Origin: Escherichia phage humlepung
Sequence record: MN850564.1
DNA length: 64,000 nucleotides
Direction: 5' to 3' (one strand)
Below, piece after piece: positions 17,385 to 57,852 of this stretch (the stretch's first letter is position 1; each line of letters opens with the position of its first letter). Position numbers and translations under genes: made by a program. The notes under the pieces were generated by a model that saw only the letters and a list, made by a program, of their open reading frames with translations, did no database searches and was not told where the DNA came from.

Positions 17385-17579
17385 ATGCCTACAATCCTAG
17401 CAATTCTTCTAAAAAATCTAGGTAGCTTCTTCTGGAAACTCATTTTATCCCTTCTAAGTGAATACATGATTGAGAAAGTGTTCTTTAAGCTTGCAAGATA
17501 CCTTGCGAGTAAGACAGACACACCTATTGATGATGAGTTCGTAGATAACTTAGAAAAAGCTTTTAAGGGAGAGAAATAA
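17385..17579 (+). CDS. small hypothetical protein (hydrophobic N-terminus)
   Basis: 64 aa; RBS GAGGTGA; ATG 17385. Confidence 0.45.
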   Translation: MPTILAILLKNLGSFFWKLILSLLSEYMIEKVFFKLARYLASKTDTPIDDEFVDNLEKAFKGEK

Positions 17580-17951
17580 ATGAAGTGGCTAGAGGAAGCT
17601 TTTAAAAATAATATTGGTGCAATTGTAGTTGGTATTTTTAGTGTTATCGGAATGTATACCACTATGCAGGTTTCAAGTGGTAAACAAGAAGTGTCTGTCA
17701 CAACAAAGTTACAGCAGTTGGATAATTATTCCAAAAGTAACTATTCAGCTATTCGTGATTTACAGTCTGACATGAGACTGATTCAGCTAGGGATGGAGAA
17801 CCAGAAAGTTCAGTTAGAGAATGTTAAGGGTGAAAACGCAAAACTTACCAAAACTCTTGATAAATTCTCTGACAGTGTGAACAATCTGGCTCAATCAGTA
17901 TCAGCCTTGCAAGCTATTACTGAGAAGAACACAAAGAATACTGAAAAATAA
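17580..17951 (+). CDS. membrane-anchored coiled-coil protein (holin/spanin-like or fibre-associated)
   Basis: 123 aa; N-terminal TM segment IGAIVVGIFSVIGMY then helical region; ATGA-coupled. Confidence 0.45.
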   Translation: MKWLEEAFKNNIGAIVVGIFSVIGMYTTMQVSSGKQEVSVTTKLQQLDNYSKSNYSAIRDLQSDMRLIQLGMENQKVQLENVKGENAKLTKTLDKFSDSVNNLAQSVSALQAITEKNTKNTEK

Positions 17952-23539: not shown

Positions 23540-23809
23540 TCACTCAATAACCGTAGTGTGTGATTGACCATTTTTGCCATAGCTATAAGATGTTGTTGTT
23601 TGGGAGTTTGGACATCTGACAACAACAATATCTCTGCTTATAGCATCACCATGTAACTTGTATACTTTGCAATCTTGCATCTCTGGTGGGAGACTGTAAG
23701 AAGCATTTTTATCTTCATAAGAAGGGTTGCAGCCAGATAGAAAAACAACACCAAGCGCAATTACTGCTTTCCACATAATACTTCCCCAGAGACTGTACAT
23801 TTTCTTCAT
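23540..23809 (-). CDS. lipoprotein (lipobox LSGC)
   Basis: 89 aa; N-terminus MKKMYSLWGSIMWKAVIALGVVFLSGC with lipobox Cys; RBS GGAG. Confidence 0.5.
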   Translation of the reverse strand: MKKMYSLWGSIMWKAVIALGVVFLSGCNPSYEDKNASYSLPPEMQDCKVYKLHGDAISRDIVVVRCPNSQTTTSYSYGKNGQSHTTVIE

Positions 23810-53292: not shown

Positions 53293-53841
53293 ATGAAGAA
53301 ATTGATTCTAGGTTTGTGCTTAATGTTTACAGCACACTTATCTTATGCAGTTGACTGCCCAGAGCTATCAATTAGCCAAAAAGTAAACATGTTAAAAGCT
53401 TACCAGTATGGTGAGAATAACATGGGTAAAGGTTGGGGTATCACTCTAGCTGCTATAGCCTTACAAGAGTCAGAGTTAGGTCTGAAGGTAGAGAATAAAA
53501 AGACACATGATTATGGTATCTTCCAGAATCACTTGAAGACTGTTGTAAAGCGTAACAAAATTAGTCCTAATGTGGCTAAAAAGAAACTCTTAAAAGACTT
53601 TGACTATGCTGCGAAGGAAACTCACAAAGAGCTTGAGTTTTGGACAAAGGTGCATGGTCAGCCAAAGTCAAAGAAGACTTTACAAAAAGTTTTAGCATCA
53701 TATAATGCTGGGTATTCGTACAAAATCCCTAAAGCTAAGAAATATTCTCAAGATGTCTATAACAACATGAAAGTCATTGCTCAATGTGAATTTGCAATAA
53801 ACATTTCTAAGGTAAACCATGAAAAAATTAAAAAAGTCTGA
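53293..53841 (+). CDS. secreted lytic transglycosylase-like protein (SLT/lysozyme-like domain)
   Basis: Signal-like N-terminus MKKLILGLCLMFTAHLSYA; ALQESELGL...DYGIFQN resembles the SLT catalytic E-S...GxxQ motif. Confidence 0.45.
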   Translation: MKKLILGLCLMFTAHLSYAVDCPELSISQKVNMLKAYQYGENNMGKGWGITLAAIALQESELGLKVENKKTHDYGIFQNHLKTVVKRNKISPNVAKKKLLKDFDYAAKETHKELEFWTKVHGQPKSKKTLQKVLASYNAGYSYKIPKAKKYSQDVYNNMKVIAQCEFAINISKVNHEKIKKV

Positions 53842-54514
53842 TGAAGTATTGTGTCATGCTTACGACTTACATCCTCATGAGTTAGGTCTTGATTCCTGTG
53901 TATGGACTCCAGAACAGTGTAGGGATTTTGAAGACACTGCAAGAGAAGTTGTATGTTCACTCGAAGAGTTCCACACATCAGAGCCAATTGTGAATGTTGT
54001 AGATAAAGAGACTGGACAAACTATAGGTGTAAGTCGTGATAGCTTAGTCATAGTCAATAAAGACCTTGTAGAAAAAGGTAACCTCATCTTAGCAGATATT
54101 GATGGTGTTCTTACAAATTTTAATCACGAAGATTGCTCAACGGAATTGACTGATGGGTCATTCTCACAGTACACTAATCTTCTTGACTCTGTAAGAGCAA
54201 AACCAACGTATGTCTTTAGTATTATTGATGCAATTGCTAATCATGCTGCCATTGGACTCTTGACAGCGAGAGGTGAATCTCAGAGAATACCTACTGAGAT
54301 GTTTTTAAGGCATAACACAGAGCATGACTACATGCTTTTTATGCGTGGTTTTGGGACTAACTCTATAAGTGCAGAAAGTTTGAAAGTGAGGATGATTCAG
54401 TCTTGCATTCTGCCTTACTTTAATATAGTATGTTTTATAGAAGACACAGAGAAGAATGTGCAGAAGGTGAACAGAATACTTCCACACATCAAAACCATGT
54501 TAGTTAAACATTGA
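53819..54514 (+). CDS. HAD-superfamily hydrolase-like protein (C-terminal domain)
   Basis: LILADIDGVLTNF matches HAD motif I (DxDGT/V); 231 aa. Confidence 0.4.
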   Translation: MKKLKKSDEVLCHAYDLHPHELGLDSCVWTPEQCRDFEDTAREVVCSLEEFHTSEPIVNVVDKETGQTIGVSRDSLVIVNKDLVEKGNLILADIDGVLTNFNHEDCSTELTDGSFSQYTNLLDSVRAKPTYVFSIIDAIANHAAIGLLTARGESQRIPTEMFLRHNTEHDYMLFMRGFGTNSISAESLKVRMIQSCILPYFNIVCFIEDTEKNVQKVNRILPHIKTMLVKH

Positions 54515-55000: not shown

Positions 55001-55024
55001 AGGCTCCTTCGGGAGCCTTTTTCA
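55001..55024 (+). terminator. rho-independent terminator
   Basis: AGGCTCC-TTCG-GGAGCCT followed by T5. Confidence 0.6.
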
Positions 55025-55041
55025 TTTCAGGAGATTGTTAA

Positions 55042-55389
55042 ATGACATTTAAAGAGTTCTGTCAAGCTACTTTCATAATTGTTTTCTTAGTTGGTGCAGG
55101 TGTCTGGGGAGGATACTCTTACAGAGACTATCAAGTTGCTGAAGCTGAGCTAAATAATGAGAAACTAATAAGTGTTGCTAAAGATGCTTATCAGGAAGGT
55201 TTAGCCACACTCAGCACCAATTACAAAAATGATTTGAAAGATGTGCTTGCTAAGAATAAGCATACAAAAGAGGTACTAACGTATGAAAAGACTAAGCCAG
55301 AGTTTTATAATGTTTGTGTTACTGATAATTATGTCAGGGTGTTCAACGAACAAAGTGAGCAGTACATTCAAAAACTCCCAAGTAAGTGA
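55042..55389 (+). CDS. i-spanin-like protein (N-terminal TM plus helical periplasmic domain)
   Basis: 115 aa; TM segment ATFIIVFLVGAGVWGGYSY; RBS AGGAGA; 3-prime end overlapped by lipoprotein gene. Confidence 0.4.
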   Translation: MTFKEFCQATFIIVFLVGAGVWGGYSYRDYQVAEAELNNEKLISVAKDAYQEGLATLSTNYKNDLKDVLAKNKHTKEVLTYEKTKPEFYNVCVTDNYVRVFNEQSEQYIQKLPSK

Positions 55390-55552
55390 GAGTGATAAGT
55401 ACACTCAAGAAGAATCACGGTATATCATCAAAGGCAACACAGGTAGTGATGTAGCAGCAGCACTTGAGTTCTACCGTGACGGATTTTACCAGTGTACAAT
55501 CAAAGCTAATAACCTTATTGACATGATTTTATTAGGGAATAAGCAGCAATGA
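55283..55552 (+). CDS. o-spanin-like lipoprotein (overlapping, +1 frame)
   Basis: 89 aa; MKRLSQSFIMFVLLIIMSGC lipobox-like signal; starts inside preceding gene. Confidence 0.4.
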   Translation: MKRLSQSFIMFVLLIIMSGCSTNKVSSTFKNSQVSESDKYTQEESRYIIKGNTGSDVAAALEFYRDGFYQCTIKANNLIDMILLGNKQQ

Positions 55553-57331: not shown

Positions 57332-57405
57332 GAAACTTCGTAGCATATTCACAATAGACTAAGCCTTTCTTATCTGGTAAATTTTTTCAGGTAAGGAGGG
57401 CTTTT

Positions 57406-57585
57406 TCATTTTAGAATTGTGCAGGTAGAGTTATGTAGAGAAATCTATAGAGAAAATTTTGAACTCCAAAGAGAAAATTCATTTTCAAACTGTGCAGGTA
57501 ATCTCCAAAGAGCTTTTTCATTTTCAAAACGTGCAGACCCCGCTCAGGTCGGGCAAGAAAAATCATTTTAGAATTGTGCAGGTAG
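57406..57585 (+). repeat. iteron-like direct repeats (4 copies of ~23 bp TCATTTT(A/C)(G/A)AA(T/C)(T/C)GTGCAGGTA)
   Basis: Copies at 57406, 57479, 57518, 57563; copies 1 and 4 identical; CTCCAAAGAG also repeated. Confidence 0.6.
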
Positions 57586-57600
57586 GTTTTTATAGACAGC

Positions 57601-57640
57601 CAGCCCAACCCCTCTCCCCCTCTTACTCCCCCTCTCCCCA
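57601..57640 (+). repeat. polypyrimidine C-rich tract
   Basis: CAGCCCAACCCCTCTCCCCCTCTTACTCCCCCTCTCCCC, between iterons and strong promoter. Confidence 0.5.
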
Positions 57641-57760
57641 AAAGTCAAGAGAAAAATTTGTAGCGGATTGAAAAATAATTCTTGATTTGCGTTCTGTTTT
57701 GTGGTAGTCGTGCGCACCCGTTTCATTACAGTTTTGCCAAAAATATTTTTAAGATTTTTA

Positions 57761-57852
57761 TTGACTCTTTGAACGTGGTTATCTAATATTTACATCAACG
57801 GGGAGGGAATGACCTTCCCCACTAAATAAAATCCTAAACTGGAGATTCAAAA
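57761..57852 (+). promoter_or_regulatory. cassette type 1 (promoter TTGACT-N17-TAATAT, 5-prime hairpin, conserved leader with GGAG)
   Basis: Hairpin GGGGAGGGAATGACCTTCCCC at 57800-57820; leader ACTAAATAAAATCCTAAACTGGAGATTCAAAAATG. Confidence 0.65.

Follow-up and report, generated by a model that had tools for sequence, protein, structure and literature searches.

Two overlapping genes on the plus strand of Escherichia phage humlepung (sequence record MN850564.1) encode a small membrane protein and a small lipoprotein-like protein, and the question raised by this locus is whether the two form a spanin of the Rz/Rz1 type or a membrane-targeted pair with a different role, such as superinfection exclusion. 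Within the 64,000-nucleotide stretch that was analysed (the window), the ORF listing and direct reading of the sequence both confirmed the proposed pair, which consists of a 115-aa ORF with an ATG start at 55042-55389 (the i-spanin gene) and an 89-aa ORF with an ATG start at 55283-55552 (the o-spanin gene). The start-to-start offset of 241 nt places the o-spanin ORF in the +1 frame, and the two genes share 107 nt of dual-coding sequence (55283-55389), an arrangement that falls among those expected of spanins, in which the o-spanin gene is embedded in, overlaps or immediately follows the i-spanin gene. The original prediction had spoken of an embedded/overlapped architecture; because the o-spanin ORF continues for 163 nt beyond the i-spanin stop, the architecture is overlapped and not embedded. 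Shine-Dalgarno-like sequences precede both starts, with AGGAG at 55029-55033 (8 nt 5' of the i-spanin ATG) and AAAGAGG at 55267-55273 (inside the i-spanin gene, 9 nt 5' of the o-spanin ATG), and ribosome-binding sites are annotated at the equivalent places in the Mushroom record. At the other end of the pair, the o-spanin stop and the start codon of the following gene overlap in an ATGA at 55549-55552. The reading of the pair as a two-component spanin agrees with the available tests, with existing annotation and with curation, and we consider it highly probable (roughly 0.88) that the two genes encode such a spanin of the Felix O1/'JH2' family.

The 115-aa protein displayed a single hydrophobic peak at residues about 6-24 (Kyte-Doolittle 19-residue mean of 1.75), within an anchor placed at about 6-25, which bears out the N-terminal transmembrane helix that had been proposed for it. 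This anchor is followed by a periplasmic domain of about 88 aa that is predicted to be helical, and the AlphaFold2 model of this remainder was indeed helical at low confidence (pLDDT 56); a small protein with one N-terminal transmembrane domain (TMD) and a largely helical periplasmic domain is the form expected of an i-spanin, with the helices here modelled at low confidence. The periplasmic domain is short, and a crude heptad count revealed a weak heptad pattern. The positive-inside rule gave no clear topology for the N-terminus (MTFKEF), and we infer a type II, N-in orientation. Comparison with PHROGs returned a full-length profile match to phrog_1152, 'Rz-like spanin' (E = 8.9e-42, residues 1-115 on positions 2-124 of the 127-position profile), which places the protein in that group. 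Near its C-terminus lies a conserved module, EKTKPxFxNxCxTDxYxxxFN, with an invariant Cys92 (alignment A2), and across distant pairs the same module, at residues 82-102, takes the form EK-x-x-x-x-F/Y-x-N-x-C-x-T/S-x-x-Y-x-x-x-F/Y-N.

The N-terminus of the 89-aa protein (MKRLSQSFIMFVLLIIMSG, then CS) fits a PROSITE-type prokaryotic lipoprotein pattern, with K2 and R3 in the n-region, an MSGC lipobox, Cys20 and a Ser at position +2. On the basis of the lipobox pattern and the AlphaFold2 model, the protein can be divided into a signal peptide (residues 1-19), a predicted lipid-modified Cys20, a linker (21-53) and a C-terminal helical module (54-87). The model itself (pLDDT 59) comprised a signal helix, a low-confidence linker at about 21-53, which is probably flexible, and the C-terminal helices; as the models of both proteins were of low confidence, they were used for secondary structure only. 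The combination of a lipobox Cys with a residue other than Asp at +2 is characteristic of o-spanins, and with Ser at this position the protein is without an inner-membrane retention signal, so that sorting to the outer membrane is predicted. The C-terminal module contains invariant G54, C71, N76 and L78 and follows the pattern G54, then L-E/D-F/W-Y, then C71-x-x-x-x-N76-x-L78-I/V-D/E (alignment A3). Among PHROGs, the o-spanin matched phrog_4180, which has no assigned function (E = 1.2e-50), and weakly phrog_456, 'Rz-like spanin' (E = 1.9e-4).

Both proteins belong to a family that has been described by curation. Over 4.5 kb, more than 200 Felixounavirus genomes match this region at 95-98% identity, Felix O1, Mushroom and adrianh among them, and the pair is labelled i-spanin and o-spanin in the adrianh record and in the annotation of Mushroom by the Center for Phage Technology. 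In SpaninDB (Kongari et al. 2018, BMC Bioinformatics 19:326; PMC6139136), Felix01 is listed under 'overlapped', and Felix01, FO1a, FSL_SP-107, Mushroom, Moogle and WV8 belong to both 'JH2' families, that of the i-spanins with 15 members (phiEco32 and NJ01 among them) and that of the o-spanins with 11. Under the family definition of that database (identity and length coverage of at least 40% each), the humlepung proteins fall into both families, with full-length identities to Felix O1 of 97.4% for the i-spanin and 96.6% for the o-spanin, the latter being 100% identical over its full length to that of FSL SP-107. The overlapped architecture, the lengths and the lipobox are all those of the 'JH2' members, and no difference of substance was found, humlepung being another Felixounavirus isolate. 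The pair is thus already catalogued as an overlapped two-component spanin of the Felix O1/'JH2' family, known by prediction and with a putative function; the literature found on this family is at the level of annotation, with no experimental test of any member. GenBank records of Felixounavirus are inconsistent on the o-spanin, many of them calling it a 'hypothetical protein' or missing the ORF. The adrianh record (adrianh 5331) places its start at the internal Met10, by which the basic n-region of the signal peptide is lost, and one record labels the i-spanin ORF 'o-spanin'. The region was also seen in the record of Staphylococcus phage SA1 (GU169904), which suggests that this record is a mixed or mis-assigned assembly.

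To follow conservation, we searched IMG/VR with the i-spanin protein, which yielded 29 loci (76-100% protein identity), and found both ORFs intact, with identical lengths and offset, in 29/29. The lipobox reads [ILT][MI]SGC across these loci with an invariant Cys, in line with the lipobox-like signal (IIMSGC) that the original prediction had picked out, and i-spanin C92 and o-spanin C71 were likewise unchanged in every locus, providing each protein with a periplasmic cysteine for putative intermolecular disulfides; by the spanin definitions of Summer et al. 2007 and Kongari et al. 2018, at least one such cysteine is usual, being present in 507 of 528 systems. Among 28 distinct DNA sequences, 39% of sites were variable in the part coding for the i-spanin only (59/95 at i-frame third positions) and 42% in the part coding for the o-spanin only (46/69 at o-frame third positions), compared with 24% in the overlap, where no codon-position bias was present and changes silent in one of the two frames were enriched (17/30 observed vs 101/279 possible non-stop changes). 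Both overlapping frames are under purifying selection, and both genes are real. Read in one frame, the overlap encodes the conserved C-terminal i-spanin module, and read in the other, the o-spanin signal peptide and the first part of its linker, so that the most constrained part of the one protein lies over the least constrained part of the other, which makes dual coding easier to sustain. The same layout, with the conserved i-spanin end lying over the o-spanin signal peptide and linker, accounts for the fact that EP335, a distant phage, has an o-spanin signal peptide (MKRLSQFFIMFALV...) nearly identical to that of humlepung.

This selection analysis bears directly on the possibility that only the 115-aa gene is real and that the 89-aa +1 ORF and its lipobox are accidental. 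Such a view could draw on the absent or 'hypothetical' entries in many annotated relatives, on a comparative paper that reports the i-spanin alone in one phage (PMC8300805), and on the fact that the N-terminus owes part of its conservation to that of the i-spanin, as the EP335 signal peptide illustrates. Overlapped o-spanin genes are, however, known to escape gene callers (PMC6139136), and the third-position bias of the 163 nt past the i-spanin stop is in the o-frame, the ORF is intact at all the loci examined, and homologues only 29-34% identical to the humlepung o-spanin (alignment A3) have retained both the lipobox Cys and the C-terminal module across four phage groups. The dual-frame signature of variation indicates that the ORF did not arise by chance; a spurious 89-aa ORF was excluded by the selection analysis, and we give this explanation almost no weight. 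Given the missing or 'hypothetical' entries in GenBank, the evidence for dual coding favours consistent annotation of the o-spanin gene.

The second possibility, which we regard as very improbable although less so than an accidental ORF, is that the pair is membrane-targeted and serves a purpose other than lysis, such as superinfection exclusion, masking of a receptor by the lipoprotein in the manner of T5 Llp or Cor, or control of lysis timing. It takes support from the neighbouring genes, which are of early or middle type (rIIA/rIIB, polynucleotide kinase, macro-domain phosphatase) and not lysis genes, from the lack of the proline-rich region of Rz1 in the o-spanin, and from a lysis function that is found in the literature only as annotation. 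Early genes are, however, also the setting of the T4 spanins, which lie beside pseT, and a type II membrane protein that is always paired with a lipoprotein, with C-terminal modules and cysteines co-conserved between the two, constitutes a spanin signature. The pair gave no PADLOC match at E <= 0.1 and no match to an exclusion family in Pfam or NCBIfam, the only matches across these three collections being sub-threshold ones to lipoprotein signal peptides, and no other spanin candidates are known in these genomes (PMC4392139, PMC4319497). With no defence or exclusion family among the matches and with homologues placed in lysis cassettes, as described below, the superinfection exclusion entertained in the original prediction found no support.

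By tblastn, homologues of both proteins were detected in unrelated phage groups at 22-34% identity to the humlepung proteins (alignments A2 and A3), and the C-terminal module and one invariant periplasmic cysteine per protein were kept across four such groups. Two of these phages carry the pair within a lysis cassette. In Proteus phage VB_PmiS-Isfahan, a holin (phrog_198), a small ORF and an endolysin-like protein come, in this order, before a phrog_1152 i-spanin and its overlapped lipoprotein ORF; Klebsiella phage phi_KPN_H2 has a holin (phrog_24402), an endolysin (phrog_315) and a membrane protein, followed by a phrog_1152 i-spanin that likewise has an overlapped lipoprotein ORF. These gene orders indicate that the homologous pair takes the place of the spanin genes in classical lysis cassettes of other phages, which argues against a role outside lysis. 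The two pairs share with humlepung the same conserved C-terminal modules, whereas they differ from it in directly following holin and endolysin genes and in having o-spanins with 1-2 prolines and extra cysteines; among the distant members as a whole, the mature o-spanins contain 0-4 prolines. Among protein searches, those by word index returned close relatives only, and in an exhaustive search of representatives the o-spanin produced five matches, of which two were close relatives, two were genuine distant relatives (P0040 and P0042) and one (P0041) was rejected as a spurious repeat protein. The small number of protein matches probably reflects the rarity with which overlapped o-spanin genes are called.

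As the original prediction had stated, neither a holin nor an endolysin gene is adjacent to the pair in humlepung, and the linkage to these genes that is usual, though not obligatory, for spanins is thus lacking. The annotated putative holin (17580-17951, plus strand, 123 aa, one TMD) is about 37 kb away; it is called 'holin' in adrianh and several relatives and corresponds to phrog_4038, listed without assigned function in PHROG, and its assignment appears to derive from topology only. This single-TMD ORF is preceded by a 64-aa ORF (phrog_402), the two together occupying 17385-17951 on the plus strand directly after the tail-fibre gene. Searches of the window by tblastn gave no endolysin match with Felix O1 gp35 or with T4 lysozyme (the latter being an approximate query sequence); the endolysin, a homologue of Felix O1 gp35, lies outside the window. 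In Felix O1-like phages, a dispersed arrangement of the lysis genes is documented as normal (PMC4319497, PMC3185647): holin-lysin cassettes are absent from the Felix O1 genome, in which the lysin gp35 has no neighbouring holin, as in T4 (PMC3185647), the Moogle announcement describes the lysis genes of these phages as "scattered around the genome", and the Mushroom and Moogle genome papers report a T4-like dispersed lysis system with these spanins. Since Felix O1-like phages and T4 both scatter their lysis genes, the doubt that had been raised from the missing holin and endolysin neighbours does not hold. Nor does the doubt raised from the proline-poor o-spanin, since the T4 o-spanin family is also without a proline-rich region (PMC6139136); this region is a trait of the lambda family and not general to spanins.

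We then compared the pair with spanins of tested function. No match to the Pfam Rz/Rz1 families was obtained at E <= 0.1, and homology to lambda Rz/Rz1 was rejected, the pair belonging to a different spanin family. The lambda and humlepung pairs are alike in comprising a type II inner-membrane protein and a lipoprotein of the outer membrane whose gene is in the +1 frame, and in offering periplasmic cysteines for intermolecular disulfides, but the lambda genes are embedded and those of humlepung are overlapped and located outside a lysis cassette. The i-spanin is also shorter than that of lambda (115 vs 153 aa) and the o-spanin longer than Rz1, with a predicted helical C-terminal module. About 10 of the 40 residues of Rz1 are prolines. 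The humlepung o-spanin, by contrast, has none among the 70 residues of its mature form, and with an ORF that runs 163 nt past the i-spanin stop it departs from Rz1 in both composition and gene arrangement. Likewise, T4 PseT.3/PseT.2 showed no sequence similarity to the pair (BLASTP E = 17 and 8.7). Both are nevertheless two-component spanins of myoviruses with dispersed lysis genes (soluble lysozyme, single-TMD holin), T4 also lacking linkage of its spanin genes to holin and endolysin genes, and in both the o-spanin lacks a proline-rich region and a polynucleotide kinase gene is found no more than about 1 kb from the spanin genes (PMC6139136, PMC4392139). They differ in that the T4 spanin genes are 'separated' and not overlapped, in that their order relative to the kinase is reversed, and in that the T4 i-spanin has no periplasmic cysteine, unlike the humlepung i-spanin with its invariant Cys92. 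The humlepung kinase (pseT-like, phrog_3970) is encoded at 53819-54514 on the plus strand, 0.5 kb from the spanin genes, and T4 pseT.3/pseT.2 adjoin pseT; this shared neighbourhood may have arisen by chance or may be left over from a once common gene order.

On the model of lambda Rz/Rz1 and T4 PseT.3/PseT.2, the i-spanin would reside in the inner membrane and the o-spanin would be anchored by its lipid in the outer membrane, on the side of the inner leaflet, with their C-terminal modules binding each other and the resulting complex bridging the periplasm through the peptidoglycan mesh. Homodimers would probably be locked by disulfides at Cys92 of the i-spanin and Cys71 of the o-spanin. Once the dispersed holin and soluble lysozyme had destroyed the cell wall, the complexes would be free to collapse and to fuse the inner and outer membranes, and this fusion would remove the last barrier to virion release. 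The importance of the two-component spanin reading lies mainly in correct annotation, as the pair is the module for outer-membrane disruption that would be expected in this well-studied phage genus, which serves in Salmonella typing and biocontrol.

A variant of this reading, which we put forward tentatively and think unlikely, holds that the Felix O1/JH2 spanins work unlike Rz/Rz1, through a helical-bundle interaction instead of a coiled coil and polyproline, or have an added role. The helical-bundle version follows from a proline-free o-spanin with a folded, helical C-terminal module and from a short i-spanin of weak coiled-coil character. If true, membrane fusion or another form of outer-membrane disruption would proceed via a helical bundle, and a possible added role would be regulated expression behind an upstream hairpin. 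As spanins free of proline, the Felix O1/JH2 proteins are in any case a reasonable comparator for mechanistic studies of spanin-mediated membrane fusion.

The hairpin in question was found by a consensus scan as a terminator-like, GC-rich stem (AGGCTCCTTCGGGAGCCT) with a T-run at 55001-55026 on the plus strand, between a 154-aa gene and the i-spanin gene; the hairpin itself spans 55001-55018 and is only 24 nt upstream of the i-spanin ATG. No sigma-70-like promoter was present between the hairpin and this ATG, and together these features suggest that the spanin genes may be expressed by read-through or attenuated transcription. Further upstream, the plus-strand gene at 53293-53841, 1.2 kb away from the spanin genes, codes for a protein of 182 aa whose signal peptide (MKKLILGLCLMFTAHLSYA) looks cleavable. 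It is annotated as 'putative lysin' in adrianh and as 'endoribonuclease, T4 RegB-like' in Mushroom, and it belongs to phrog_600, which is without known function. Considered as the missing adjacent endolysin, this protein gave a match to the Pfam SLT lytic transglycosylase family below threshold (E = 1.2e-3, 18.8 bits vs a cut-off of 21.3) and no PDB sequence match.

Elsewhere in the window, a lipoprotein-like 89-aa ORF (MKKMYSLWGSIMWKAVIALGVVFLSGC...; phrog_902, no assigned function) occupies 23540-23809 on the minus strand with no obvious type II membrane partner next to it, and this ORF is a better candidate than the spanin pair for a non-lysis lipoprotein role, for example in exclusion. Downstream of the spanin genes, four direct copies of TCATTTTMRAAYTGTGCAG were observed on the plus strand at 57406, 57479, 57518 and 57563, where about 0.01 copies would be expected by chance. 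The element had no copy elsewhere in the window and no Rfam match. The four copies are spaced 39-73 nt apart within a 0.5-kb gene-free stretch (57332-57852) and could represent a putative cluster of promoters or regulator-binding sites.
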